Shown here piece after piece: positions 435 through 63,962 of a stretch of DNA of 64,000 nucleotides. The stretch covers positions 93,560,001 through 93,624,000 of the forward strand of contig CM059432.1 of assembly GCA_030390025.1 (NCBI GenBank). The letters are read 5' to 3'. Made by a program: the position numbers and the translations under genes. The notes below the pieces were generated by a model, which worked only from the letters and a program-made list of their open reading frames with translations, was not told where the DNA came from and did not search any database. Numbering within the stretch: position 1 is the stretch's first letter; each line of letters opens with the position of its first letter. This DNA is from Squalus acanthias. Taxonomy: Eukaryota.

Positions 435-3400
435 CCCTTCCAATACCCTCTCCTCCTCCCCTCCGATACCTTCTCCGATCTCCTCTACCCCCCGATACCC
501 TCTCCTCTCCCCCCCCCGCCCGATACCCTCTCCCCCCCCATCCCCGCTCCTCTCCCCCCCCATTCCCTCTCCACTGCCCCCATCCCCTCTCCCCCCCATC
601 CCCTCCCCTCTCCTCTCCCACCCCTCCCCTCTTCCCCCCATCCCCTCCCCTCTCCTCTCCCCCCCCTCCCCTCTCCCCCCCCTCCCCTCTCCTCTCCCCC
701 CCTCCCCTCTTCCCCCCCATCCCCTCCCCTCTCCTCTCCCCCCCCTCCCCTCTTCCCCCCCATCCCCTCCCCTCTCCTCTCCCCCCCCTCCCCTCTTCCC
801 CCCCATCCCCTCCCCTCTCCTCTCCCCCCCCTCCCCTCTTCCCCCCCATCCCCTCCCCTCTCCTCTCCCCCCCCTCCCCTCTTCCCCCCCATCCCCTCCC
901 CTCTCCTCTCCCCCCCCTCCCCTCTTCCCCCCATCCCCTCTCCTCTCCCCCCCCATCCCCTCTCCTCTCCCCCCCATCCCCTCTCCTCTCCCCCCCATCC
1001 CCTCTCCTCTCCCCCCCCCATCCCCTCTCCTCTCCCCCCCCCATCCCCTCTCCTCTCCCCCCCCCATCCCCTCTCCTCTCCCCCCCCCCATCCCCTCTCC
1101 TCTTCCCCCCCCCATCCCCTCTCCTCTCCCCCCCCCATCCCCTCTCCTCTCCCCCCCCCATCCCCTCTCCTCTCCCCCCCCATCCCCTCTCCTCTCCCCC
1201 CCCATCCCCTCTCCTCTCCCCCCCCCATCCCCTCTCCTCTCCCCCCCATCCCCTCTCCTCTCCCCCCCATCCCCTCTCCTCTCCCCCCCATCCCCTCTCC
1301 TCTCCCCCCCATCCCCTCTCCTCTCCCCCCCATCCCCTCTCCTCTCCCCCCCATCCCCTCTCCTCTCCCCTCTCCTCTCCACACCCCCCCATCCCCTCTC
1401 CTCTCCCCTCTCCTCTCCACACCCCCCCATCCCCTCTCCTCTCCACACCCCCCCATCCCCTCTCCTCTCCCCCCCCCATCCCCTCTCCTCTCCCCCCCCC
1501 ATCCCCTCTCCTCTCCCCCCCCCATCCCCTCTCCTCTCCCCCCCCATCCCCTCTCCTCTCCCCCCCCCATCCCCTCTCCTCTCCCCCCCATCCCCTCTCC
1601 TCTCCCCCCCATCCCCTCTCCTCTCCCCCCCATCCCCTCTCCTCTCCCCCCCATCCCCTCTCCACACCCCCCCATCCCCTCTCCTCTCCCCTCTCCTCTC
1701 CACACCCCCCCATCCCCTCTCCTCTCCACACCCCCCCATCCCCTCTCCTCTCCACACCCCCCCATCCCCTCTCCTCTCCACACCCCCCCATCCCCTCTCC
1801 TCTCCACACCCCCCCATCCCCTCTCCTCTCCACACCCCCCCATCCCCTCTCCTCTCCACACCCCCCCATCCCCTCTCCTCTCCACACCCCCCCATCCCCT
1901 CTCCTCTCCACACCCCCCCATCCCCTCTCCTCTCCACACCCCCCCATCCCCTCTCCTCTCCACACCCCCCCATCCCCTCTCCTCTCCACACCCCCCCCAT
2001 CCCCTCTCCTCTCCACACCCCCCCATCCCCTCTCCTCTCCACACCCCCCCATCCCCTCTCCTCTCCACACCCCCCCATCCCCTCTCCTCTCCACACCCCC
2101 CCATCCCCTCTCCTCTCCACACCCCCCCATCCCCTCTCCTCTCCACACCCCCCCATCCCCTCTCCTCTCCACACCCCCCCATCCCCTCTCCTCTCCACAC
2201 CCCCCCATCCCCTCTCCTCTCCACACCCCCCCATCCCCTCTCCTCTCCACACCCCCCCATCCCCTCTCCTCTCCACACCCCCCCATCCCCTCTCCTCTCC
2301 ACACCCCCCCATCCCCTCTCCTCTCCACACCCCCCCATCCCCTCTCCTCTCCACACCCCCCATCCCCTCTCCTCTCCACACCCCCCCATCCCCTCTCCTC
2401 TCCACACCCCCCCCATCCCCTCTCCTCTCCACACCCCCCCATCCCCTCTCCTCTCCACACCCCCCCATCCCCTCTCCTCTCCACACCCCCCCATCCCCTC
2501 TCCTCTCCACACCCCCCCATCCCCTCTCCTCTCCACACCCCCCCATCCCCTCTCCTCTCCACACCCCCCCATCCCCTCTCCTCTCCACACCCCCCCATCC
2601 CCTCTCCTCTCCACACCCCCCCATCCCCTCTCCTCTCCACACCCCCCCATCCCCTCTCCTCTCCACACCCCCCCATCCCCTCTCCTCTCCACACCCCCCC
2701 CATCCCCTCTCCTCTCCACACCCCCCATCCCCTCTCCATCCCCATCCCCTCTCCCCCCCATCCCCTCTCTCCGCCCCATCCCCTCTCCCGCCCCATCCCC
2801 TCTCCCGCCCCATCCCCTCTCCTCATATCCCCTCTCCCCCCATCCCCTCTCCTCTCCCCCCATTCCCTCTCCTCTCCCCTTCCCCATTCCCTCTCCTCTC
2901 CCCCCCCCCCCCATCCCCTCTCCTCTCGCCCCCCCCATCCCCTCTCCTCTCGCCCCCCCCCATCCCCTCTCCTCTCCTCGCCCCCCCCCATCCCCTCTCC
3001 TCTCCTCGCCCCCCCCCATCCCCTCACCTCTCCCCGCCCCCCCCCATCCCCTCACCTCTCCCCCCCCCCCATCCCCTCTCCTCTCCTCTCCCCCCCCCAT
3101 CCCCTCTCCTCTCCTCTTCCCCCCCATCCCCTCTCCTCTCCTCTTCCCCCTCCCATCCCCTCTCCTCTCCTCTTCCCCCCCCATCCCCTCTCCTCTCCTC
3201 TCCCCCCTCCCATCCCCTCTCCTCTCCTCTCCCCCCTCCCATCCCCTCTCCCCCCCCATCCCCTCTCCCCCCCCCCATCCCCTCTCCCCCCCCCCATCCC
3301 CTCTCCTCTCCCCCCCGCATCCCCTCTCCCCCCCCATCCCCTCTCCCCCCCCATCCCCTCTCCCCCCCCATCCCCTCTCCCCCCCCATCCCCTCTCCCCC

Positions 3401-5875
3401 CCCATCCCCTCTCCTCTCCCCCCCCCTCTCCTCTCCCCCCCCCCATCCCCTCTCCTCTCCCCCCCATCCCCTCTCCTCTCCCCCCCATCCCCTCTCCTCT
3501 CCCCCCCATCCCCTCTCCTCTCCCCCCCATCCCCTCTCCTCTCCCCCCCATCCCCTCTCCTCTCCCCCCCATCCCCTCTCCATCCCCATCCCCTCTCCCC
3601 CCCATCCCCTCTCCCGCCCCATCCCCTCTCCTCATATCCCCTCTCCCCCCATCCCCTCTCCTCTCCCCCCATCCCCTCTCCTCTCCCCTTCCCCATTCCC
3701 TCTCCTCTCCCCCCCCCCCCATCCCCTCTCCTCTCACCCCCCCCATCCCCTCTCCTCGCCCCCCCCATCCCCTCTCCTCGCCCCCCCCATCCCCTCTCCT
3801 CTCCTCGCCCCCCCCCCCATCCCCTCTCCTCTCCTCTCCCCCCCCATCCCCTCTGCTCTCCTCTCCCCCCCCCATCCCCTCTCCTCTCCTCTCCCCCCCG
3901 CATCCCCTCTCCCCCCCCATCCCCTCTCCCCCCCCCATCCCCTCTCCTCTCCCCCCCCCATCCCCTCTCCTCTCCCCCCTCCCATCCCCTCTCCTCTCCC
4001 CCCCCCATCCCCTCTCCTCTCCCCCCCCCCATCCCCTCTCCTCTCCCCCCCCCATCCCCTCTCCTCTCCCCCCCCCATCCCCTCTCCTCTCCCCCCCCCA
4101 TCCCCTCTCCACTCCCCCCCCCATCCCCTCTCCTCTCCCCCCCCATCCCCTCTCCTCTCCCCCCCCATCCCCTCTCCTCTCCCCCCCCATCCCCTCTCCT
4201 CTCCCCCCCCATCCCCTCTCCTCTCCCCCCCCATCCCCTCTCCTCTCCCCCCCCATCCCCTCTCCTCTCCCCCCCCATCCCCTCTCCTCTCCCCCCCCAT
4301 CCCCTCTCCTCTCCCCCCCCATCCCCTCTCCTCTCCCCCCCCATCCCCTCTCCTCTCCCCCCCCATCCCCTCTCCTCTCCCCCCCCATCCCCTCTCCTCT
4401 CCCCCCCCATCCCCTCTCCTCTCCCCCCCCATCCCCTCTCCTCTCCCCCCCCATCCCCTCTCCTCTCCCCCCCCATCCCCTCTCCTCTCCCCCCTCCCAT
4501 CCCCTCTCCTCTCCCCCCTCCCATCCCCTCTCCTCTCCCCCCTCCATCCCCTCTCCTCTCCCCCTCCCCATCCCCTCTCCTCTCTCCCTCCCCATCCCCT
4601 CTCCTCTCTCCCTCCCCATCCCCTCTCCTCTCCCCCCATCCCCTCTCCTCTCCCCCCATCCCCTCTCCTCTCCCCCCCATCCCCTCTCCTCTCCCCCCCA
4701 TCCCCTCTCCTCTCCCCCCCATCCCCTCTCCTCTCCCCCCCATCCCCTCTCCCCCCCATCCCCTCTCCTCTCCCCCCCATCCCCTCTCCTCTCCCCCCAT
4801 CCCCTCTCCTCTCCCCCCCATCCCCTCTCCTCTCCCCCCCATCCCCTCTCCTCTCCCCCCCATCCCCTCTCCTCTCCCCCCCATCCCCTCTCCTCTCCCC
4901 CCCATCCCCTCTCCTCTCCCCCCCCCCGCCCGATACCCTCTCCTCTCCCCCCCGCCCGATACCCTCTCCTCTCCCCATTCCCCCCGATACCCTCTCCTCT
5001 CCCCATTCCCCCCGATACCCTCTCCTCTCCCCCCCCCCCACCCGATACCCTCTCTCTCCCCCCCCGCCCGATACCCTCTCCTCTCCCCATTCCCCCCGAT
5101 ACCCTCTCCTCTCCCCATTCCCCCCGATACCCTCTCCTCTCCCCCCCCCGCCCGATACCCTCTCCTCTCCCCCCCCGCCCGATACCCTCTCCTCTTCCCA
5201 TTCCCCCCGATACCCTCTCCTCTCCCCCCCGCCCGATACCTTCTCCTCCCCCCCCTGCCCTGATACCTTCTCCTCCCCCCCCCGCCCTGATACCTTCTCC
5301 TCCCCCCCCCCCCGCCACCTTCTCCTCCCCCCCCCCCGCCCTGATACCTTCTCCCCCCCCCCGCCCTGATACCTTCTCCTCCCCCCCGCCCTGATACCTT
5401 CTCCTCCCCCCCTGCCCTGATACCTTCTCCTCCCCCCCCCGCCCTGATACCTTCTCCTCCCCCCCCCGCCCTGATACCTTCTCCTCCCCCCCCCGCCCTG
5501 ATACCTTCTCCTCCCCCCCCCGCCCTGATACCTTCTCCTCCCCCCCCTGCCCTGATACCTTCTCCTCCCCCCCCCGCCCTGATACCTTCTCCTCCCCCCC
5601 CTGCCCTGATACCTTCTCCTCCCCCCCCCCGCCCTGATACCTTCTCCTCCCCCCCCCCACCCTGATACCTTCTCCTCCCCCCCCGCCCTGATACCTTCTC
5701 CTCCCCCCCTGCCCTGATACCTTCTCCTCCCCCCCCCGCCCTGATACCTTCTCCTCCCCCCCCCTGCCCTGATACCTTCTCCTCCCCCCCCCTGCCCTGA
5801 TACCTTCTCCTCCCCCCCCCTGCCCTGATACCCTCTCCTCCCCCCACCACCCCCCGATACCCTCTCCAATCTCCT
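435..5875. repeat. ~5.4-kb C/T-rich compound minisatellite with ~20-28-bp units
   Basis: Tandem units such as CCCCCCATCCCCTCTCCTCT, CCACACCCCCCCATCCCCTCTCCTCT and CCCGCCCTGATACCTTCTCCTCCCC are read directly; the + strand has almost no G. Confidence 0.98.
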
Positions 5876-13840: not shown

Positions 13841-14449
13841 CCATGAGTGCCAGTTGCCTACTAATACCTGATGCACGTAACGATTCATCATATGTGCTCC
13901 TGGCTAGTAAACTCAGCAGAAAATTTAATCGCGGATATCAGAAGTCAAGCTGGATCTTGTACTAACCAAATGTCCACAAACTCTCCAGCTATGGTCACTG
14001 AGCAGGGCCCAAAAATGGGATCATTGGCCAATTCTTCCTTTCCCTAGCCCAGGAATGCTGAAGATAACCGTAGAGCCTCCATTATTTACCCGACAGAGAT
14101 CTCAACTCAGCACAAACCGTGGGTCAAGCGCAGGAAACTTCCTAGTTAATATGGCTCAGAAACATACAGCAATGTTTTGTAACGGTTGCAGTAGAAACAG
14201 TTAACATTCTATTCTGAACTATTATTTGAATAATCTGATCACTCAGCTATTCACTAACTGAACAACAAAGGGACCAAAAATCTGATGTTTTTTTTGATAA
14301 CATGCCTGTTCTTTTTGTCAAGATAAATGAACCAACAGAATTGCTGCTCGAGAATATAATTTTAATAGAAATAACTGGAAAAAAAAAAATCATAATGGAC
14401 CTAAAATAATGATGCTTTAACAATTCTGAAGCAACTAATTTTTTTTTAT

Positions 14450-14995
14450 ATTTGTTCATGGGATGTGGGCATCACTGGGAAGGCCAGCATTTATTACCCA
14501 TCCCTAATTGCCCTCGAGAAGGTGGTGGTGAGCCACCTTCTTGAACCGCTACAGTCCGTGCGGTGAAGGTACTCCCACAGTGCTGTTAGGGAGGGAGTTC
14601 CAGGATTTTGACCCAGCTATGATGAAGGAACGGCGATATACTTCCAAGTCAGGATGGTGTGTGACTTGGAGGGGAACTTGGAGGTGGTGGTGTTCCCATG
14701 TGCCTGCTGCCCTTGTCCTTCTCGGTGAAAGAGGTCGCGAGTTTGGGAGGTGCTGCCGAAGAAGCCTTGGTGAGTTGCTGCAGTGCATCTTGTAGATGGT
14801 ACACACTGCAGCCACGGTACACCGGTGGTGGAGGGAGTGAATGTTTAAGGTGGTGGATAGGGTGCCAATCAAGCGGGCTGCTTTGTCCTGGATGGTGTCG
14901 AGCTTCTTGAGTGTTGTTGGAGCTGCACTCATCAAGGCAAGTGGAGAGTATTCCATCACACTCCTTACTTGTGCCTTGTAGATGGTGGAAAGGTG
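14450..14995 (-). mobile_element. Non-LTR LINE family B, 3' fragment
   Basis: ORF 14549-14959 (MEYSPL..KKLDTIQDKAARLIG) is nearly identical to 52170-52625. Confidence 0.9.
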
Positions 14996-19361: not shown

Positions 19362-20187
19362 GCGTCAGGGTCCTTCCAGGGATCAGCAGCAGACATTAGC
19401 GGAATCTCCCAGTCGGCTGCACACAGATGCATAACACAGGTTACCAATACCCTGTTTGCCAAGTCGGCCAATTACATCCACTTCTCAACGGATGAAGCAA
19501 GTGTTACCGTGCGGGCGGTTGGGTTTGCCAATATGGCAGGCTTCCCAAGGGTGCAGGGTGTCATCGACTGCACACATGGCCATCAGGGCACCCCATCACA
19601 ACCCAGCTGTATTTGTGAACCGCGAGGGCTTCCACTCCCTTAAAGTCCAGCTGGTGTGTAACCACAGGAAGAACATTATGCATGTTTGCGCCAAGTTCCC
19701 TGGCAGTTGCCATGACTCGTTCATCCTGCGGCAGTCTACTGTGCCTCAGCTCTTCAATCCGCCAACCCAACTTTCCGGATGGCTACTTGGAGACAAGGGC
19801 TATCTCCTGAAGAGGAGGTCATCAAACGAAGCTGAGGAGCGCTGCAATGAGAGCCACATTTCCACCAGAAGCATCATGGAGCAAACCATAGGCTTGCTTA
19901 AAATGCGCTTCAGATGCCTGGACAGATCTGGTGGAGCCCTAGAGTACGCACCAGCTAGGGTGTCCAGAATCATCGTAGTCTGCTGTGCCCTGCACAACAT
20001 CGCACTGCTGCCGCTGCCTGAGGAACAAGTGGCACAGCCTCCTCCTTCTCAGAGGAGGAGCCGAAATAAGGCTGCAGATGAGGAACACCTGGCGGAGGCG
20101 CCTGTCCCAGTTCTACCAGCACATGAGCATATTGCTGGCCATGAGGCAAGGGATGGACGAATCCATGCCAGATTCGCAGGTAGATAA
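19362..20187 (+). pseudogene. PIF/Harbinger DDE transposase (HARBI1-like) relic
   Basis: Two frames give ASGSFQ...GVIDCTH / AIRAP...[11 protein letters not shown]...LLGDKGY...[16 protein letters not shown]...CCALHNIA; frameshift near 19575; N-terminus absent. Confidence 0.92.
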
Positions 20188-24508: not shown

Positions 24509-24543
24509 ATTATTAACATGATTACCTCTGTCATAGAGTCATA

Positions 24544-25389
24544 GGAGGAAAAATTCGGTTGATTAGCGCCTCCCGTTAGCGCCCGGGCGCAGTGATGTTT
24601 GTGCTGCTCACGAAATTGACCAGACATTTTGCGGCGGCGCTAAACACTACCGCCACAATCTCCTGCGCCCGCAGATCGTGACGTCAGTCGAGCGTGCAAC
24701 GCCCCGGACCAGATATTGAGTGGCACCCCCTGCCTTTCCACCTGCCGCTAGCAATGACAGGTAGAGGGGAACGTTTTGCAGTCGGGAAGGGACTGGGGGA
24801 GCGCTATTTAAAGGCGGCCGCTTCCTGACTTTTTTTGTCGGCGACATTTTTACACCACGCATTCTGAGAGAGAGAGACAGACAGACACTTCTGGAGAGAT
24901 TCAACACTGTATGAAGGAGTTTTGGGTACTGAGCATCACTTTGCAGGTTCATTTTGATTTGACCTTTCTTGCATCGATTTAGAAGAGACTTGCGGGTTGC
25001 ACTCTGAGCTCTTACCCTGGGCCTCTCCATTGTTCTTTCCAATAGAATTGATGTACAGGCCTCTCCAGGCCGAGATTCAAGGCTGCAATGAGCAGGGTGT
25101 GGCTGGAGAGCAAGATCGACCCTCCCCTTTAAGAACTGGCCGGCGCCAGTGTGTCTGTGTTCCATTGCTAACTGACATCACATGAGCTTCGCCAGCGCTC
25201 TGAGGTAGCGCCTCGCTCCTCGGCGTTAGCGCCTTGAGAGGTGTGTAGCGCCTGATTTAGCGCTCAAATCAACTCCAGGGGCGATAGAAGCCAAGTTTGC
25301 AGTCGGAGGCAATAATTAGCGTCAGGCGTTAAACTTTGTGCCCGGCTGATAATTGCGCCCCAAACGGGACGATACCGAATTTCTCCCCC
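24544..25389. mobile_element. Harbinger-type MITE inserted in a CR1 tail
   Basis: TIRs GGAGGAAAAATTCGGT / ACCGAATTTCTCCCCC (14/16 match); ATA TSD; many TAGCGC subterminal motifs. Confidence 0.85.
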
Positions 25390-28823: not shown

Positions 28824-29531
28824 GGCCCGTATTTTGCGACCTCTATGGGTGCGTACGAGGTGCGCATAAGTGCTGGGTTTAGGCATGTGAAGCGCATGAG
28901 CTGAAACCCGGCACTTGCGAACTGTCAAGAATCCTCGACAGAAAAGGGCCTCCTCGGGTGTAGAGTTGCGATTTGCCCAACTTCCGCCCGCTGAAAGGCC
29001 ATGGAATTCTTACACCTGGTTAAAAACTGCTTTTACCAGCATAAGAGTTTTAAAATATAGAAAAATAAAATTCTCACTTATACATCAAAAACCCTGTCCA
29101 ATAAGGTATGTTTATTTTTAGCCCTGTTAAAACATACAAGTGATTTTTTCAAAAAATTAAATGTTTAAAATATTTAATAAAATGCCATTTAAATGGCATT
29201 TTATATATGTAATTAAAAAAAAATTATTTCATGTGTTCGTGTATTTTTTAAAGTCATCTCCATTCATACTTTTGACAGTTCCATACATACAGAACTGTCA
29301 AAAGTATGAAGGGGGATTTCCTTCTTTCATTGGTTGGGTTAGCCCACGTGATCCCAGGGGCGCTTGCGAACCACATGCGTCCCTGGGATATGTGGACCTC
29401 TACGCATTTCCACCAAGAGAGGCCCAGGATCGCAAGCCTCCATATCTCCCGGACCACCTGGTAAATGCATAGAAAATTTGATGATCGGAGGCATCCATCC
29501 GCGAGAAGCTTCCGATCGCAAATTCAGGCCC
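28824..29531. mobile_element. Harbinger-type MITE
   Basis: Imperfect TIRs GGCCCGTATTTTGCG / CGCAAATTCAGGCCC; ATT TSD; internal similarity to 63150-63880. Confidence 0.85.
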
Positions 29532-44393: not shown

Positions 44394-47300
44394 GGGCTCG
44401 ATTTTAAATCCCAAGGCAGATTGGAGTCGGGTTGTGTGGTGGGTGGGTTCGGGAGCCGCTTCCGGCGGGATCATCTGCAAATGCGCGATTTTTATTCAAC
44501 AAGCTTGTTAATTTCTTGGAGGCGCGCTGGCTGGTCCAATGAGTGGGATCGGGTCGGCTGGCCGCCTCTGATGATGTCATAATACCAGCTGCTTTTAAAG
44601 CTGCCATCCAGCCTGAGCCTTTCCATTATGGTTTCCTGCACTTGATTTAAAAGCTATGACTTCTTCCAGAGGCAAGGCAGCTCCTCGTTTTAATGATGAG
44701 TCCCTCCACGTTCTTGTGGATGCTGTCAGAGGGCGCAGGTAGATTCTCTTCCCTCCTGATGGCTGGAGGAAGCCTCCTCAGCAGACCAAGGCAGCCTGGC
44801 TGCACATTGTTCAGGAGGTGAGCGCAAGGTCCATTTATGCACAGGTCATGGGCCCAGTGCCGCAAAAGGTTTAATGATCTTGTGAGAACATCAAAAGTGA
44901 GTATCCCATCTCACTTGCCTTCACTCTGCTTCCCTTCTCTTCTCATCACCAGCACTCTGCGTTGTAAGCCTCCTCCTTCACATCCCACCTTACTCTTACT
45001 TCCCTTGCACCCTTTCCTATCCATCTCTGTCTCTGTACTGAATCACTTCAGCATCCTGCCTATGCACCCCTTAGACTCGCTCTCACTCTCATGCAGTGAC
45101 AACAACTAATAACACACAGGGAGCTAGCTTCCTCTTGGCACCTTACCCATCTTCGTCTCCCTCAAAGCTTCTATGGTAGGGATTCTTCACACTCACTCCA
45201 TCACTGTGGCTGAAACACCGCTTGTGTCCCTCCTTGCAGGAAAAGATAGCCCACAAAAAGAGGGAGAGAGCAATGACTAGAGGACGAACACCTATACTAG
45301 CAACTTTGACCAGTGCGGAGGAGGCTGCTAACGAGGTTGTTGGAGGTGGCGAGGACCTGGAAGTGGGCGATGGACAGACGGGCACACTAGAGGAAGCTGG
45401 TGACATAATAGAGTTTCATCCCTCTCAGAAAGCAATGGCATATGATGTTCATAGAGAATCGCATTGTATCATCTGCTCAAAAGGATGTGTCTGCTACATC
45501 AATATCAGATGTCTAATTCAAGCCTTTACTCTCCCACAGGACTATGGAGCGTCCTCCTCCCCAAGATCCAGGACGAAGACCCGGACAAATCCTCAGGAGG
45601 AACCTGAAGCCTCTGAGGGACCAGCATCACCAGGACTCAGTGTACCCAGCAGCAACGCACACCTCGGTGGGGCCATCGCGAGTTAGAGTAGTGTTGCCAC
45701 CTGGTCTATCACAGCGCACAAGTGAGCATCAGCAGATGGTGGAGACAGCAACAGCAGTGGAGAGTCCTCGGTGGAGGTCGCAGGACTCTCCTAGCTCTGC
45801 TGAGCTGCATGCAGACGCTGTGCCTCTGGGGCCATCCAGAAAAAGAGCGGTTCGTGAAATACAGGATCAAGTGCAGGTGTCTCTGGAAGGGTTTGCCTCC
45901 AGGGTTAGTGCGAGTGTGGAGAGAATGGAGGAGTTCATCTCTAACATCAGCACTGTCGTGGTGGAGGCAATGGCACATGAATGCACCACCATGGATAGGA
46001 TGGCAACCTCCGTGGAAAGGCTGGCTACCTCAGTGGAAAAGCTGGCTATAGCCATGGAGGAAATAAGTCGCCAGAGTCAGGAAAACATGGTGACTGTTCA
46101 AAATAGAATGACATCTCTGGAGGAGCGATAGGCAGCTATTGAGCAGAGAGACCAGAGCTTCATGGACATCCTTGTGATGAGGACTGCCAGTGCAGATACG
46201 GATCCTCATGGCCCCCCTGATGTGCGGCAAGGTGCTCTCCAGCCACTTGCCAGCACTGAGGGGCGGCTGACCCATGAGAGGGATGTTGTTGGCAGGACAG
46301 AAGGAAGTGTGGGCTCCTCTCAAAGCGCTCACACGACCATGGCACTGCGGAGCCCTCAGTCAGAGACCCACTTTGCAGAGACAACCGAGATGGCCGTTTC
46401 AGCCCCTGCACAGCCGCAGGAAGAGCAGACTGTTGAAGAGCCCTCCCAGGCTCCCAAACCCAGAGGACGCCCGCCAAAGGCGTCTAAGCAGGCACAGGCG
46501 CCTAGTCAGCAAGGTGCCTCTACATCTGCTGAAGCCACAGGGGAAGAACCATGTAGAAGCACGCGTAAGAGAAAGATTAAGCACCTATAGTCACAAGGGG
46601 ACTCACTTGGGTGATGTTTCTTTTTTTTCTGACTCTTGCTGGCTTATTATCATTTTGTCATGTGTTAAAGATAAATTATGTCAAACAGTTGATTGTGTGG
46701 CCTATGTGTTATGCGAAATGGCAAAAGCGCATTGAGGGTTCAGGGTGACTTGCTTTTGTAATGCTGATGGTAAAAGTGAAAAGAAATAACAAGGTATAGC
46801 AGAGATTATGTATGACGTTGGACAAGTGTCACCTGCAATTACAGAGCCATATGGTAGCCACCTATGGTTGAAGAGTAAGCTTATGCTAATGTGGCATGGT
46901 ATTGTGCATACCCTGCTTGACGGGCAACAGTGAACTGGAGGGATGCTGCATTGGTCACAACAGGGCATGCAAGGCACCCCTCGTCCTCCTCCTACTCCTC
47001 TTCCCAGGAAGATCTGTGCTGAGCCATGTGGCTGCTACTCCTCGGATTATGAGGACCCGGATGAAAGGGCATAAATGTTTCCCATGCCCTTGCTATAGAT
47101 TTAATTTGAGGCAACAAGCTTGCAAGCGCACAGTCGAAATGGCCTGAAATTATTCCATTCATGCCACACTGCAGATGGGTGTCAGCTTGAACAGTCAGAA
47201 GGTCAGTAGGTGTGCAAAATGTTATCCAATACCTACAACAGCAAAGTTGCTGCATTTGAATGTCAGCCATGTTTCTGGGGCGCTTTTAAAGCGCTCCACC

Positions 47301-52114: not shown

Positions 52115-55100
52115 ATTTGTTTTATGGGATGTGGGCGTCGCCGGCAAGGCCAGCATTTATTGCCCATCCCTAATTGCCCTCAAGAAGGTGGTGGTGAGCC
52201 GCCATCTTGAACCGCTGCAGTCCGTGTGGTGAAGGTACTCCCACAGTGCTTTTAGGGAGTGAGTTCCAGGATTTTGACCCAGCGACGATGAAGGATCGGC
52301 GATATACTTCTAAGTCAGGATGGTGTGTGACTTGGAGGGGAACTTGGAGGTGGTGGTGTTCCCATGCGCCTGCTGCCCTTGTCCTTCTCGGTGGAAGAGG
52401 TTGCGGGTTTGGGAGGTGCTGCCGAAGAAGCCTTGGCGAGTTGCTGCAGTGCATCTTGTGGATGGTACACACTGCAGCCACAGTACGCTGGTGGTGGAGG
52501 GACTGAATGTTTAAGGTGGTGGATGGGGTGCCAATCAAGCAAGCTGCTTTGTCCTGGATGGTGTCGAGCTTCTTGAGTGTTGTTGGAGCTGCACTCATCC
52601 AGGTAAGTGGAGAGTATTCCATCACACTCCTTACTTGTGCCTTGTAGATGGTGGAAAGGCAGGAGGCGAGACACTCGCCACAGAATACCTAGCCTCTGAC
52701 CTGCTCTTGTTGCCACAGTATTTATCTGGCTGGTCCAGTTAAATTTCTGGTCAATGGTGACCCCCAGGATGTTGATGGTGGGGGATTCGGTGATGGTAAT
52801 ACCGTTGATGTCAAGGGGCAGTGGTTAGACTCTCGTTTGTTGGAGATAGTCATTGCCTGGCACTTCTGTGGCACGAATATTACCTGCCACTTATCAGTCC
52901 AAGCCTGAACGTCATCCAGGTCTTGTTGCATGTGGGCATGGACTGCTTCATTATCTGAGTAGTTGTGAATGGAACTGAACACTGTGCAGTCATCAGCGAA
53001 CATCCCCATTTCTGACCTTATGTTGGAGGGAAGATCTTTGATGAAGCAGCTGAAGATGGTTGGGCCTAGGACACTGTCCTGATGAACTCCTGCAGCCATG
53101 TCCTGGGGCTGTGATGATTGACCTTCAACCACCACAACCATCTTCCTTTGTGCTAGGTATGACTGCAGCCAATGGAGCGGTTCCCCCCCTGATTCCCATT
53201 GACTTCAGTTTTACTGGGGCTCCTTGATGCTACACTCGGTCAAATGCTGCCTTGATGTCAAGGGCAGTCACTCTCACCTTACCTCTGAATTCAGCTCCTT
53301 TGTCCATGTTTGGACCAAGGCTGTAATGAGGTCAGGAGCCGAGTGGTCTTGGCGGAACCCAAACTGGGCATCCGTGAGCAGGTTGTTGGTGAGTAAGTGC
53401 CGCTTGATAGCACTGTCGATGACACCTTCCATCACTTTGCTGATGATTGAAAGTAGACTGAGAGTTGGCCGGGTTGGATTTGTCCTGCTTTTTGTGGACA
53501 GGTCATACCTGGGCAGTTTTCCACATTGTCGGATAGACGCCAGTGTTGTAGCTGTACTGGAACAGCTTGGCTAGAGGCGCGGCTAGTTCTGGAGCACAAG
53601 TCTTCAGCACGATAGCCGGGATGTTGTCAGGGCCCATAGCCTTTGCTGTATCCAGTGCGCTCAGCCGTTTCTTGATATTACATGGAGTGAAATGAATTGG
53701 CTGAAGACTGGCTTCGGTGATGGTGGGGACTTTAGGAGGAGGCCAATATGGATCATCCACTCAGCACTTCTGGTTGAAGATGGCTGCAAACGCTTCAGCC
53801 TTGTCTTTTGCACTCACGTGCTGGGCTCCTCCATCACTGAAGATGGGAATATTCATGGAGCCTCCTCCTCCCGTTAGTTGTTTAATGGTCCACCACCATT
53901 CACGACTGGATGTGGCAGGACTGCAGAGCTTTGATCTGATCCGTTGATTGTGGGATCGCTTAGCTCTGTCTATAGCATGCTGCTTCCACTTTTTAGCATG
54001 CATGTAGTCCTGTGTTGCAGCTTCCCCAGGTTGGCACCTCATTTTTAGGTACGCCTGGTGCTGTTCCTTGCATGCTCTTCTACACTTCTTATTGAACCAG
54101 GGTTGGTCCCCTGGCTTGATGGTAATGGTGGAGTGAGGGATATGCCGGGCTATAAGGTTACAGATTGTGGTGGAATACAATTCTGCTGCTGCTGATGGCC
54201 CACAGCACCTCATGGATGCACAGTTTTGAACTGCTAGATCTGTTCTGAATCTATCCCATTTAGCACGGTGGTAGTGCCATACATGATGGAGGGTGTCCTC
54301 AGTGTGAAGACGGGACTTCATCTCCACAATGACTGTGCAGTGGTCACTGCTACCAATACTGTCATAGACAGATGCATCTGCGACAGGTAGATTGGTGAGG
54401 ACGAGGTCAAGTAGGTTTTTCCCTCGTGTTGGCTCTCTCACCACCTGTTGCAGGCCCAGACTGGCAGTTATGTCCTTCAGGACTCGGCCAGCTCGGTCAG
54501 TAGTGGTGCTACTGAACCACTCTTGGTGATGGACATTGAAGTTTCCCCACCCAGAGTACATTTGTGCCCTTGCTACTCTCAGTGCTTCTTCCAAGTGGTG
54601 TTCAACATGGAGGAGTACTGATTCATCAGCTGAGGGAGGGCGGTAATCAGCAGGAGGTTTCCCTGCCCATGCCTGACCTGAAGCCATGAGACTTCATGGG
54701 GTCCGGAGTCAATGTTGAGGACTCCCAGGGCCACTCCTTCCCGACTGTATACCAGGGATGGTGATGGAGGAGTCTGGGACATTGGCTGAAAGGTATGATT
54801 CTGTGAGCATGACTGTGTCAGGCTGTTGCTTGACTAGTCTGTGGGACAGACCTCCCAATTTTGGCACAAGTCCCCAGATGTTGGTGAGGAGGACTTTGCA
54901 GGGTCGACTGGGCTGGGTGTGCCGTTGCCGTGTCCGTAGCCGGTGCCGAGGTCGATGCCGGGTGGTCCGTCCGGTTTCATTCTTTTTCATAGCGGTTTGT
55001 TACAACTGAGAGGCTTGCTAGGCCATTTCAGAGGGCAGTTAAGAGTCAACCACATTGCTGTGGGTCTGGAGTCACATATAGGTCAGACCAAGTAAGGACG

Positions 55101-55298
55101 GCAGACTAAAGGAAATTAGTGAACCAGATGGGTTTTTACGACAATCTGATAGTTTCATGGTCACCATTACTGATACTAGTAATTATTCCAGATTTATTTA
55201 ATTAACTGAATTTAAATTCCCCAGCTGCCGTGGTGAGATTTGAACTCACGTCTCTGGATCATTAGTCCAGTGACATTACCACTACACTACCGTTCCCA
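52115..55298 (-). mobile_element. Near full-length family-B LINE (endonuclease + RT, disrupted) with tRNA-like 5' head
   Basis: LLTNIWGL, LTESYL, GNFNVHH, LDLVLTN, SDH, KAMGPDNIP and MFADD motifs; box A/B-like head at 55237-55289. Confidence 0.92.
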
Positions 55299-58989: not shown

Positions 58990-60772
58990 AAACATAGGAA
59001 CAGGAGTAGGCCATTCAGCCCCTCAAACCTGTTCTGCCTTTCAGTTCAATCATGGCTGATCTGTATCTTAACTCCATTTATCTGCCTTGCTCCATATCCC
59101 TTAATACCCTGACCTAACAAAAATCTATCAATCTCAGTTGTAAAATTTTCAATTGACCTAGCCTCAACAGATTTGGGGGAGAGAGTTGCAGATTTCCACT
59201 ACCTTTGTGTGAAGAAATGCTTCCTCACATCACCCCTGAACGGCCTAGCTCTAATTTTAAGGTTATACCCCCTTGTCCTGGACACCCCCATCAGAAGAAA
59301 TAGTTTCTCTCCATCTACCCGATTGAAATTCTTTTAATCATCTTAAATACCTCAATTAGATCATAGAATTACATAGAATTTACAGCAAAGAAACAGGCCT
59401 TTCGGCCCAACTGTTCCATGCCGGAGTTTATGCTTCACATGAGTTTCCTCTCACCCCTCTGCATCTAACCACACCAGCATATCCTTCTATTCATTTCTCA
59501 CTCAAGTGCTTATCCAGCTTCCCTTTAAATGCATCTGTGCTATTCATCTCAACTACTCCTTGTGATAGCAAGTTTGACATTCTTACCAATCTCTGGGTAA
59601 AGAGATTTCTCCTGAATTCACTATTGGATTTATTGGTGAATATTTTGTATTTCCCCGAGTTTTAGTCTACCCCACAAGTGGAAATCTCTTCTCTACGTCT
59701 AACCTATCAAACTTCTTCACAACTTTAAAGACCTCTATTAGGTTACACCCAAACCTTCTCTTTTCTAGAGAAAAGAACTCAGCCTGTTCAATCTTTCCTG
59801 ATAAGTATAACCTCAGTGTTCTGGCATCATCCTTGTGAATCTTTTTTGCACCTTCCCCAATGTCTCTATATCCTTTTTATAATATGGAGACCAGAACTGT
59901 GCACAGTACTCCAAGTGTGGTCTAACCAAGATTTTATACAAGTTTAACATAACTTCTCTGCTTTTCAATTCTATCCCTCTAGAAATAAGCCCCAGTGCTT
60001 TCTTTGCCTTCGATAAGGTACCGCATAGTAGACTCATAACTAAGGTCAGAGCATGTGGAGTCAGGGGACACGCAGCAGAAGGGATAGCAAGTTGGCTACA
60101 GGACAGAAAAGTTAGTGGGTGTTAGACTGGCAAAAGGTAGGAAGTGGTGTTCCACACATCACTACTTTTAGTGATGTGTATCTGCACCCCAGATCCCTTT
60201 GCTCTGCTACCCCATTTCGACTCTTCTTTTCCGAGCAGTATAAGGTCTCCTATTCTTCCTACCAAAATGTATCACCTTGCACTCATCTATACTGACATTT
60301 ATGTGCCAATTACACACTCATTCTGCAAGTTTATTAATGTCCGCTTGTATTTTATCGAAGTCTTCCTCAGTATTAACTGTACCCCCCAATTTGGTGTCGT
60401 CCTCAAATTTTGAAATTGTATTTTTGATTCCAGAGTTCAAATCGTTTATGTAAATGGTGAACAACAGTTGCCCCAGCACCGATCCTTGTGGAACACCACT
60501 TCCTACCTCTGCCAGTCTAACACCCACTAACTTTTCTGTCCTGCAGCCAACTTGCTATCCATTCTGCTGCGTGTCCCCTGACTCCACATGCTCTGACCTT
60601 AGTTATGAGTCTACTATGCGGTACCTTATCGAAGGCCTTTTGAAAATCCAAATATATTACATTTACTACCCTACCCTTGTCTACTCTTTCCGTTACATCT
60701 TCAAAGAATTCAAAAAGGTATTCCTGCATTACCTTCCGATTTGAAATCTGTGCTGACTATTCTTTATTAAAT
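58990..60772 (-). mobile_element. Two adjacent CR1 fragments (58990-59360 and 59362-60772)
   Basis: Two tails; [26 protein letters not shown] and [13 protein letters not shown] motifs. Confidence 0.88.
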
Positions 60773-61419
60773 TCTGCTCATGTTCTTTCTACTCTGCCTT
60801 GTCAACTAGACATACACTCAAGTGCAACTGCATGATGCACAGTATATTGCCATGGAAGTAATATTTGAAGGGGTGTTAGACAGGCAGTGTTCCAACATCA
60901 GTTCCTCTTCTATTTCTATAGATGGTCTGCCAACTCCCAAGAATCAGGTACAACATACAGTCTCAGTTGAAGAAATCAGCAGGTCACTCACTCCACCTGT
61001 TACAACCACCTCTCTGGTCCAAGGTTCTGTGATGTTTAGCTAGGATATATGGAGCTGTTCCAGCAATAATTTTCAATTACCCCATGAAACAGAGTAACTG
61101 TAAAACATTTTCAAAACTACTACTTCAGTTTCAAAAGTATGAAAGACTACACAAGTAGCATGATCTTAGATATAAGTCAGGTTCAAGTAGAAAAAAATCT
61201 TTTTTTTTTTAAGATTAGATTACTTCTTTTTATTCGTTTGTGGGATGTGGACCGCGCTGGCAAGGCCAGCATTTATTGCCCATCCCTATTTGCCCTTGTG
61301 AAGGTGGTGGTGAGCTGCCTTCTTGAACCGCTGCAGTCTGTGTGGTGAATGTACTCCCATGGTGCTGTTAGGGAGGGAGTTCCAGGATTTCGACCCAGTG
61401 ATGATGAAGGAACGGCGAT

Positions 61420-63880
61420 GGGCCAAAAATTCGGCCCTTCCCGGGTGAGTACTGTAGAATTCGCAATATATCGCGATTTTATTAATAAGGAGAAAAACAC
61501 AGAGTTTCGTTCAAACAGCTTTTATTTCAGCGGAATGCTGTCAGGTTTCAAAGTGGACACAAGCAGCTTGTAAAATGGCCGCCGCACCTCGTGGCGGAAC
61601 ATTCTAGACTTTGACAGGCAGACAAGATGGCGTTCCAATAAACATTTGTGCAAGATCGATTAAGATTCAGCACATTGAAGATAATACACGAGACATCATG
61701 GGTTTACAGTATACACATAAATACTGAAATCGGTCTCCCAGGTACGAATGAAAGCTATTGTACCAAGTAATCAAGAGCCCATCCAAAGACATTAATATGT
61801 AAAATCCCAACGACTCTACGATGAGAGAGCCGTTAGCGGGTAGTTACAGAAAACACTTGGAAGCCCCAAAACCCCTCCAGGGAGAACACCGACCGATTAA
61901 ACAATGGGAGAAATATTAACAGGTACTCAGACATTTACGAGTAGCCCCGAAACCCATTAAAAACGGAGATCACCTATACAAGACATTTGAGCGCCAAACC
62001 ATAACAAAAGGAAAAGACATTAAGGTTGGGCGGGAAACGGAAGATTTTGTACTATAATTACAAGCTCCAACCGTCCATCTCTCTCTTATCTTCGTATCTT
62101 GCTGGTGTTCATCCTCGTGGCTGCTCCTGTGTTCTTGACTCGCCGTCTCGTTCCTGCTTGCCTCGTGTCTCTTTTCAAAAGACTGTTGAACTTTATGATC
62201 CGCTCGGATCTACCTCGTGTCGTGTCGCGAAGACCTGTGTAGAACTGGGCTCTGAAGCCTTGAAGCGGGCGCACCATTCCGATAAGTCGGTAAACGGTGT
62301 TGGAACCGAAGGCCCGAGATGAGATGAGATGAGATGAGAAGAGAAGAAGACCATACTTATCGCCACGGTCAGTAAGCCCCGACCGCGCCTGTAGGTCGAA
62401 TAGACATTTTCCTTGCCAGGAAGACTTCTTCGAATTTTACAGAACTGCCAGGAAGATTACTTTTTGAATTCTATCGCATCCGTGCGAGGACACAGGAAGA
62501 CTCTTTTTTTGAGTAGAGTCGGAACTCCGAGGACAACACAGATCTTCATGACAGCAGACGTTCCAGCCTGCTAGCCGGAGCAGAACGAGTAAACAAGTGG
62601 GGCCAGGAGACCCCCTGATCGACACGTGGGTGCTGCGGTGAAAAACATCCGATCAGAGGTTTCAGAATTCTCCGAGTTATCACGAGTGGTGAGCATGAGT
62701 CTCGAATCCTACGAATCTAGCTAGGACAGATATTGATAGGGGAGGGTTTTAAGTATTAAGGATAATTGTAATGTGTGCCCCATTTACAATGTGTCGTTCG
62801 TTCCTCGTTTCCCTGAAATTAATTACATAACTGCGTGCAAGATTGTACTGTCATTAATCTGTGCGTATGACATGTATTTCGTAATCTTAAGTACTATGCA
62901 ATAAAGATTTTCCATTTCGTACCATTCAACCGAGTCTACCTGAGTTTTATCTCCATTACTGCTCTCGCATCTAAGTCCAGTGTCTAGAACCGTAAGGGCG
63001 AGTGGGTCGAACCATTCACAGGTGTGTCTAGTGCTCCCAGACTGGCTGGAGACCAGAACAGGCAACAAGGCCTAAACCCGCACTAGCACCCGGGCTGCAC
63101 AGAGCCACACGAATCTCACAGGCTGAGAGACATCAACCCTTACAGTACGCACTGTGTACTCACCCGTAAGGCGTCCTGAAGTGCCGGTTTCCTGCATGCA
63201 CTGCGCATGCGCGGGAAACCGGAACTTCCGGTCTGGTGAAGGGGGCGGTTCATAGGTGAACCGCGTGCGCGGTAGAGGCTGCGCGCACACAGCAAACTTA
63301 GGTTTTTTTTCAGGTTTCTACGGGAAAGTAAGTATTGAAGAACCTACGCTTTTAAAAAGGAGGCGCAGGAGCCGTTTTCAACAAGGTAAGTGGTCAATTA
63401 AGTATAATTTAAAAAAAATTTCAACAGGTTTATCTTTTTTAGATACTTTAAAGAAAGGTAAGTTTATTTTTAGCACTGTTAAAAAGTATTTTAATTTTTT
63501 CAAAAATTTAAATTTTTGTTTAAAGTAGTTAATTTATTTAACTATAGTTATTTTATAAATGTGATGGTTTTTTAAAAAATTTATTTTAAGTTTAGCTGTT
63601 CTTTTGGGGCCGATTTCAATTCATAGATTTGACAGGTCTTCCTGTCAAATCTATGAATGAAAGATGGTCTGCTGCCATTGGCTCTCCATGGCCCACGTGA
63701 TCCCAGGGGATGCATCGCACTAACTGCACCCCTGGGACACGCAAGCACTGCGCGCCAGCACTTGGAGCAGGCCCAGGAGCTGAAGTTCCCGTGGGCCCAA
63801 AACACAACGGCAGGCGCGGTACGTAAGTGCGCGCGGGATCCTTACCCCCGCAGCAAGCCGGAGAGGCGAATTTCAGGGCC
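61420..63880. mobile_element. Harbinger-type MITE related to 28824-29531, containing the solo LTR
   Basis: Imperfect TIRs GGGCCAAAAATTCG / CGAATTTCAGGGCC; TSD GAT/AAT with one mismatch. Confidence 0.82.
61453..63144 (+). mobile_element. Solo LTR (1,692 bp) of an ERV or LTR retrotransposon
   Basis: TGTA...TACA termini; exact GTAC TSD; GC box at 62028, TATAA at 62053 and AATAAA at 62900 in order; CpG-rich. Confidence 0.85.
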
Positions 63881-63962
63881 AATATATTTCCAAGTCAGGA
63901 TGGTATGTAATTTGATGGGGAACTTGTAGGTGATGATGGCGACTGCTGCCCTTGTCCTTCTA

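Follow-up and report, generated by a model that had tools for sequence, protein, structure and literature searches.

A probable solo LTR of 1,692 bp from an abundant repeat family, nested within a MITE and a LINE fragment of Squalus acanthias

Organization of the locus

Three repeats lie one inside another near the right end of the window, which is the whole stretch of 64,000 nucleotides analysed here (Squalus acanthias, contig CM059432.1). The outermost layer is a LINE 3' fragment. Its left part (61224 to 61419, minus strand) shows 87-89% identity to uninterrupted copies at 14442-14637 and 52121-52303, and its right part (63882 to 63961, minus strand) matches 14636-14722 and 52302-52388 at 79%. 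The strand of the fragment was assigned from a minus-strand RVT_1 frame (52725-53204) adjoining one such copy.

The middle layer is a MITE at 61420-63880, which measures about 765 bp without its insert. Its terminal inverted repeats are imperfect, and the 3-bp duplication around it shows a one-base mismatch on the right. The left copy of the duplication, GAT (61417 to 61419), was recognized by comparison with three empty LINE sites, and the single change in the right copy (63881-63883) would fit CpG decay. The left part of the MITE (61420 to 61452) contains a terminal inverted repeat and the left arm of a split hairpin, and the right part (63149 to 63880) contains the right hairpin arm, additional inverted repeats and the terminal inverted repeat of that side, with a 68% match to a relative at 29103-29360. 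The MITE is probably of the PIF/Harbinger type, judging by its 3-bp target site duplication (TSD), a trait of that type. A DDE_Tnp_4 frame is present elsewhere in the window (19435-20184).

The innermost layer is an insert of 1,692 bp, probably on the plus strand (61453 to 63144), which begins with TGTA and ends with TACA and is flanked by the 4-bp TSD GTAC on the left (61449 to 61452) and on the right (63145 to 63148). Excision of the insert together with one GTAC restores the hairpin of the MITE, whose arms CGGGTGAGTAC and GTACTCACCCG pair with a folding energy of -14.9 kcal/mol as DNA. No second copy of the insert was found within the 64-kb window, and no terminal inverted repeat beyond 4 bp was found at its ends. 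Neither a PBS nor a PPT lies beside it at the locus: both flanks are MITE sequence, with purine shares of 0.47 and 0.53, and TGG follows neither end.

The empty site of the insert is present in other copies of the host MITE. A joint from 61447 to 63144, which skips 1,696 bases (1,692 + 4), was found in 18, 13, 5 and 4 contigs of the public runs X1, X3, X8 and X12, respectively. Since this skip occurs in contigs of all four runs, the boundaries of the insert and its 4-bp TSD are real. Empty sites of the MITE in the LINE were found at 14637, 52303 and 15304 of the window and in 17 contigs of X12, and the two sets of empty sites establish that the MITE entered the LINE and the insert then entered the MITE. 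The initial annotation had described the insert with its ends and perfect TSD, the splitting of the hairpin and the order of the nest, all of which are confirmed by the sequence, the restored hairpin and the empty sites in the window and the runs. No piece spanning the junction of the LINE, the MITE and the insert was found among the pieces listed from the four runs. As a single insertion site, the locus shows nothing about targeting of hairpins; the preference of plant LTR elements for palindromes is described as slight (PMC6911290).

Identity and proposed formation of the probable solo LTR

Very probably, the insert is a solo LTR from a family of LTR elements that is very abundant; this judgement does not extend to the class of the element. 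The TG..CA ends, the short TSD and a single LTR with no PBS, PPT or genes alongside all support this reading, which had been proposed in the initial annotation. The term LTR is applied on account of the ends, the TSD and the layout, as neither a paired copy nor a PBS, a PPT or a gene was seen.

The 4-bp TSD shows that integration proceeded with a 4-base stagger. A full-length element would have been inserted by an integrase of this stagger into the hairpin of a MITE that already lay within the LINE fragment, and its two LTRs would later have recombined with loss of the interior. The recombination step is suggested by the single LTR between matching TSDs, and recombination between LTRs is the usual origin of solo LTRs (PMC11853044).

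Copy number and variation of the family

Words of the LTR were present in 20 of 21 listed runs, which come from eight studies and carry four organism labels, and the best word share was 0.74. Contigs were mapped at 85% likeness for four of the 21 runs (three of organism A and one of organism B). Small word shares among the remaining 17, which include all runs of organisms C and D, are not counted as proof. The LTR was covered in 30 of 30 bins in each of the four mapped runs, and its terminal bins were deeply covered. None of the 24 listed of 1,121 loose contig ends from these runs lies at either LTR terminus, and the exact termini with their TSDs were not seen at other loci.

Across the 23 inner bins, summed depth had a median of 376,879 in X1 and 338,066 in X3; the corresponding medians for the eight listed pieces per run were 43 and 18. 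The resulting ratios of about 8,700 and 19,200 are a rough guide, as summed depth does not count copies and the listed pieces may themselves be multicopy. By that rough guide the family numbers from thousands to the order of ten thousand copies. In depth, the LTR is close to its host MITE, and the LINE lies about ten- to twentyfold higher.

The copies are varied. Over 2,051 aligned bases, 210 places vary in at least 5% of the depth (40 of them listed), and the region of CAGGAAGA repeats has length variants among the copies in the run contigs. The same variants are also present in the run of organism B, which shows that the family is common to both labels. The LTR had been called hidden, which, in the sense of rare, is not supported: it is one member of a varied family with a very high copy number and with words in runs of four organism labels, and it is covered over its whole length at high depth in all four mapped runs. 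Other copies, whose absence would have counted against the initial annotation, do exist.

The LTR contains 84 CpG sites, with an observed/expected ratio of 0.95; the ratio is 0.20-0.62 in 33 equal tiles of 6001-61836. The abundance of CpG noted in the initial annotation was therefore found, but it is not peculiar to the LTR, because the host MITE without its insert is equally rich (observed/expected 1.0). Of the 29 listed variant places in the LTR, 12 have a minority letter in the window copy, with another letter above 80% of the depth in both DNA runs, and only one of these 12 changes resembles CpG decay. The window copy is little decayed, and it is either a member of a minor subfamily or a bearer of private changes. 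Its description as young was not borne out, given the equal CpG content of the MITE and the minority letters. Little decay does not translate into recency in years, because the neutral rates assumed for cartilaginous fishes are low (PMC4422223, PMC10699275). The best word share of 0.74 would correspond to a distance of about 1% to the nearest word, or 20-45 Myr at the rates of PMC10699275 and PMC4422223, a range that is no date because contig filters drop rare words.

Motifs and the putative U3, R and U5 regions

The motifs listed in the initial annotation are all present, the second YY1-like motif being placed at 61624. A putative U3 of about 620 nt (61453 to 62075, plus strand) is A-rich and contains YY1-like motifs at 61572 and 61624, a GC box (GGGCGG) at 62028 and TATAA at 62053. 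A putative R of about 0.84 kb (62076 to 62925, plus strand) contains a pyrimidine run, a (GAGAT) repeat of 5.8 units at 62316-62344, a region at 62406-62534 with CAGGAAGA at 62417, 62449 and 62493, an AT-rich stretch and AATAAA at 62900. A putative U5 of about 220 nt (62926 to 63144, plus strand) contains a predicted multi-arm fold at 62992-63143 with a 7-bp closing stem. Within the LTR the GC box lies at position 576, the TATA-like site at 601 (25 nt past the GC box) and AATAAA at 1,448. Further AATAAA motifs occur at 61637 on the plus strand and at 61526 and 61483 on the minus strand. The borders of U3, R and U5 are placed by motifs, and LTR borders need RNA data (PMC3601003).

Chance levels were estimated from 2,000 first-order resamples of the LTR, for patterns that had been picked after being seen. 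Three copies of CAGGAAGA occurred in none of the 2,000 resamples. Two YY1-like motifs and a GC box followed by TATA each gave P 0.005, and TATAA (P 0.77), two AATAAA (P 0.12) and GGGCGG (P 0.12) were singly at chance level.

No special overall fold was found in the putative R (z 0.16), and simple patterns gave no matches to splice sites. The longest stop-to-stop frames of the LTR have 105 and 116 amino acids, and no frame beyond chance was found in the putative U3. Pfam searches gave a match for none of six frames at E 0.01 and for one of 12 at E 0.1; a sub-threshold match to DUF6056 in an LTR frame, from the search at E 0.1, was taken as chance. Protein searches, which weigh little here, returned no longer proteins overlapping either end frame.

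Transcription of the parent element would have started about 25 nt past the TATA-like site at 62053, near 62080 on the plus strand, and the transcript would have been polyadenylated about 20 nt past the AATAAA at 62900, near 62920. If these motif calls are right, R measures about 0.84 kb and R plus U5 about 1.07 kb, compared with an R that is several times shorter in well-studied retroviruses; that they are right is possible but doubtful. A short R on the plus strand is a separate possibility with about an even chance. It is favoured by the chance-level occurrence of TATAA and AATAAA taken singly, and it is common for an LTR to be without a TATA box or to use several starts (PMC3601003). No class-specific R lengths were found in the available portions of PMC8672886 and PMC2664473.

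None of the listed runs with LTR words is recorded as RNA. The depth of X8 and X12 relative to the DNA runs is 0.27 and 0.48 over 62956-63162 and 1.55 and 1.48 over 62059-62817, respectively. A plus-strand 3' end near 62.9 kb would produce such a drop, but depth is also low at the left end. X8 and X12 are RNA by guess, and their contigs cannot give strand, start, end or level, so this contrast in depth is not counted.

The last 155 nt of the LTR fold with z -2.73 on the plus strand (two of 200 shuffles as good), compared with -0.58 on the minus strand (54 of 200). This fold is the strongest of 30 tile-strand folds, and its z falls to -1.58 once the closing stem is clipped by 5 nt. Three listed variant places lie within it: those at 63015 and 63034 are in stems and keep pairing on the plus strand as G-C or G.U, and the third is unpaired. 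The motif TCGAACC, complementary to the T-arm of tRNA, occurs at 63007-63013, about 135 nt from the LTR end; such a 7-nt complement has P 0.013 in 220 nt and 0.14 in the whole LTR. Seven contigs of X3 differ upstream of 63024 and keep the T-arm complement without the 5' arm of the hairpin, which speaks against a universal structure.

The folded U5 of the parent may have helped a host tRNA to prime reverse transcription. Pairing of U5 with the T-psi-C loop was suggested for avian sarcoma virus (PMC3185550). Both that interaction and the primer activation signal of HIV-1 involve a part of a folded U5 that can pair with the T arm of the primer tRNA (PMC3185550), whereas the LTR described here has a predicted 7-nt match only and is known from sequence.

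Class of the parent element

The parent was likely a retrovirus-type element, and this is more likely than a Gypsy retrotransposon. A fish foamy-like ERV is tentatively the single likeliest class. No PBS, PPT or gene was seen that would fix the class, in line with the earlier statement that an LTR alone does not permit its assignment.

The foamy-like class, to which the initial annotation had pointed, is a fair lead, as the length of the LTR, the 4-bp TSD and the mid-LTR TATA match the LTRs of teleost foamy-like ERVs. Those of AcERV, PfERV, PrERV, SpERV and LcERV range from 988 to 1,707 aligned positions, with TSDs of 4 nt (PMC5210030), and the LTR of AliFLERV has 1,634 nt (PMC5512871). The 1,692 bp found here thus fall within the fish foamy-like range of about 1.0-1.7 kb, which is not exclusive to that class, and the LTR is not unusually long as had been claimed. 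The 4-nt TSD is not diagnostic of foamy-like elements, because gammaretroviruses share it (PMC5210030). Solo LTRs are also known for the teleost foamy-like ERVs, with which the present LTR was compared by description only.

Two published LTRs show a similar layout. In our own reading of the printed sequences (PMC5512871), the AliFLERV LTR carries TATAAAA near 618, preceded by a G-rich box near 595 and followed by AATAAA near 1,180, and the AciFLERV LTR (about 1.5 kb) has TATAAAA near 450 and 662, a CT-rich run after 662 and AATAAA near 1,012. No annotation of these motifs by the authors was seen in the portion of PMC5512871 available. These LTRs resemble the present one in a TATA about 600-660 nt from the 5' end, followed by 0.8-1.0 kb in which the poly(A) region is AT-rich and the end GC-rich. 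They differ from it in several respects. The three printed LTRs begin with TGTC, whereas this LTR begins with TGTA. The AATAAA lies 847 nt past the TATA here, compared with about 350 and 560 nt, and U5 is shorter here. The apparent copy depth is far higher than the few to tens of copies described for these elements.

The mammalian foamy viruses share a very long LTR and a 4-bp TSD. The LTR of the gibbon SFV has a U3 of 1,704 nt, an R of 207 nt and a U5 of 160 nt, for a total of 2,071 nt (PMC6669568), and is therefore long through its U3, whereas the putative U3 here has about 620 nt without a frame beyond chance. A mammalian-type foamy LTR, with a U3 above 1 kb and a short R and U5, was rejected by motif, since the only TATA-like site is at 601 of 1,692. 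A mid-LTR TATA followed by 0.8-1.0 kb has a precedent in the fish LTRs above, and the mammalian layout is the wrong yardstick.

Parentage by a lokiretrovirus-like or tRNA-Arg-primed ERV or by a class I (epsilon-like) ERV, taken together, is a minority possibility of some substance; the lokiretrovirus-like or tRNA-Arg-primed part is by itself rather unlikely, and class I by itself is improbable. In favour of this group are the U5 fold of about 152 nt with its T-arm complement and the U5 pairing suggested for avian sarcoma virus (PMC3185550). Lokiretroviruses are characterized by an F-like Env, a tether plus RNase H and an RT that is sister to retroviruses (PMC7947760), and neither an LTR length nor a TSD for them was found in the available text of that paper. 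For class I, the 4-bp TSD agrees, the 5' end of the LTR fits the gamma motif TGWAG, and epsilon-like and snakehead-like ERVs occur in the elephant shark (PMC4422223), but the fish epsilon LTRs tabulated in PMC11117352 are only 377-665 bp long. Class I LTRs can be longer: LTR12 reaches more than 1,300 bp and has 4,000-6,000 copies (PMC11853044). LTR12 of ERV9 is the best functional analogue of the present family: its solo LTRs number in the thousands, are long and CpG-rich, and contain internal repeats of variable length. It differs in being of primates, with repeats in U3 and U5 and a short R, and no sequence relation is implied.

A long-LTR Gypsy retrotransposon of the Barthez or Osvaldo/Gmr1 clade is an unlikely parent, though weightier than any rival class taken singly other than the foamy-like one. 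4-bp TSDs occur in some animal Gypsy clades. The LTR's 3' end matches the integrase motifs of Sushi (5/5) and rGmr1 (5/6), but the end motifs do not discriminate: rGmr1 scores 4/5 and 5/6 on the plus strand and 5/5 and 3/6 on the minus strand, and Gamma scores 6/8 and 4/4. Both clades have LTRs with TG..CA ends, some of them longer than 1 kb, and many families (PMC11117352, PMC4746887). Barthez LTRs measure 1,025-1,116 bp in pufferfishes (PMC11117352, Table 2), and Osvaldo/Gmr and Barthez are the richest Gypsy clades of zebrafish, with 61 and 60 families, respectively (PMC4746887). The 1,692 bp found here exceed all Gypsy LTRs tabulated in PMC11117352, of which the longest has 1,116 bp, but lie inside the fish foamy-like range, and the TSD length is not given in the portions of PMC11117352 and PMC4746887 available. 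The T-arm complement suggests priming by a tRNA, which is a poor fit to self-priming Gypsy elements. A parent outside the foamy-like, Gypsy, loki-like or tRNA-Arg-primed and class I groups is very unlikely.

Orientation and non-autonomous alternatives

The LTR probably reads on the plus strand. The plus orientation of the initial annotation is supported by the GC box and the sole TATA-like site (position 601), which are present on that strand only, and by the better U5 fold there. A reading on the minus strand is improbable. It stays alive because two AATAAA motifs lie near the left end on that strand, 68 and 25 nt from it, and the 5' end on the minus strand fits rGmr1 at 5/5. Against it, the minus strand has no TATA-like site, the U5-like fold and the G.U-tolerant variation favour the plus strand, and two published fish LTRs have the same motif order on the plus strand (PMC5512871).

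That the insert is a non-autonomous TG..CA-ended unit, mobile as such (LTR-only or DNA-type) and not a product of recombination, is very improbable. Its very high copy depth and the absence of an internal region among the listed loose ends would suit such a unit, but the terminal inverted repeat is at most 4 bp, and the promoter-to-poly(A) layout and the end fold are LTR-like. More than 90% of HERVs are solo LTRs (PMC11853044), so an excess of solo copies is normal. A TRIM of the Helenus or TRIMp3 type was rejected: Helenus-type TRIMs are short and have two LTRs (PMC10886601), and the insert is a single 1.7-kb unit without a tRNA call. Helenus and TRIMp3 carry a tRNA-derived promoter in the LTR, whereas this LTR has only a B-box-like 10-mer on the minus strand. 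No tRNA gene and no Rfam family at gathering level was found in the LTR, which gave two chance-level Rfam matches.

Significance of the family

No description of this LTR family was found in the literature by a text search, which cannot match sequence and has most subscription papers outside its scope. Neither the inner nor the 5' terminal 23-mer of the LTR was found in metagenome contigs, and no pattern matches were found in viral contigs; neither collection is expected to hold animal DNA.

The solo LTR of a retrovirus-like repeat family described here is an ordinary genomic fossil, unusual only in that its transcribed middle may be long. Solo LTRs from high-copy families are routine genome content in repeat nests, and this one matters little as it stands. 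Any de novo repeat library of the host genome should contain this family, and the LTR offers a way to trace its parent within the retrovirus-like families that cartilaginous fishes carry. The copy works like a solo LTR, and the long R is the one remaining point of interest.

If the long R is true, the parent would copy more than 1 kb before the first strand transfer. Every one of the CpG-rich solo copies, thousands in number, would then carry a promoter 0.85 kb from a poly(A) signal and could yield a self-contained, capped and polyadenylated non-coding RNA with a length-variable repeat inside. LTRs with a long R might be general among fish retroviruses and have gone unremarked, given the two teleost foamy-like LTRs with a mid-LTR TATA. 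A long R, should it hold, would extend the range of LTR designs known so far and would point to a large class of LTR-contained transcripts.

Comparison with teleost foamy-like LTRs

The LTR sequences of the teleost foamy-like ERVs AciFLERV and AliFLERV, as printed in the supplement of PMC5512871 and read by eye, carry TATAAAA approximately 620-660 nt from the 5' end. The position of this motif in the printed sequences implies an R+U5 of 0.8-1.0 kb. Such an implied layout is unlike that of mammalian foamy viruses.

Pol III- and tRNA-like motifs

A Pol III B-box-like 10-mer is located at 63004-63013 (-), where it mirrors the T-arm complement (TCGAACC, 63007-63013) in the putative U5 of the solo LTR (61453-63144). 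Inspection by eye revealed no clear A box upstream of this 10-mer. An Rfam tRNA-like match (35.3 bits) was found at 55232-55290 (-); ARAGORN called no tRNA there, and the segment is probably the head of a SINE or LINE.

Other features of the window

The region 447-5867 is a 5.4-kb C-rich tandem array with units of 21-28 nt and a GC skew near -1, and G runs are plentiful on its opposite strand. The stretch 24510-25388 is CpG-rich (o/e 0.86, GC 0.53). No repeat partner of it was found within the 64-kb window, and its 176-aa frame had no match in a Pfam search. Several overlapping frames of 150-200 aa occur in a GC-rich stretch (45180-46735), one of which gave weak coiled-coil-type Pfam matches below the cut-off. 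Between two LINE-like pieces, some 150 bp are duplicated in inverted orientation almost without change (60006-60156 and 60487-60636), with 98% identity over 127 nt and 100% over another 22 nt. This arrangement resembles the outcome of template switching or folding back as the sequence inserted.

Host MITE and candidate transposase

The MITE split by the solo LTR (61420-63880) is itself rich in CpG (o/e 1.0) and contains several hairpins, including a perfect 18-bp hairpin at 63619-63658. This element is very abundant across the four public sequencing runs compared, and a diverged relative is present at 29103-29360. A 250-aa frame at 19435-20187 (+) matches DDE_Tnp_4 in Pfam (E = 1.4e-29) and is a piece of a PIF/Harbinger-type transposase. 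This piece is a candidate relative of the enzyme that mobilized the host MITE.
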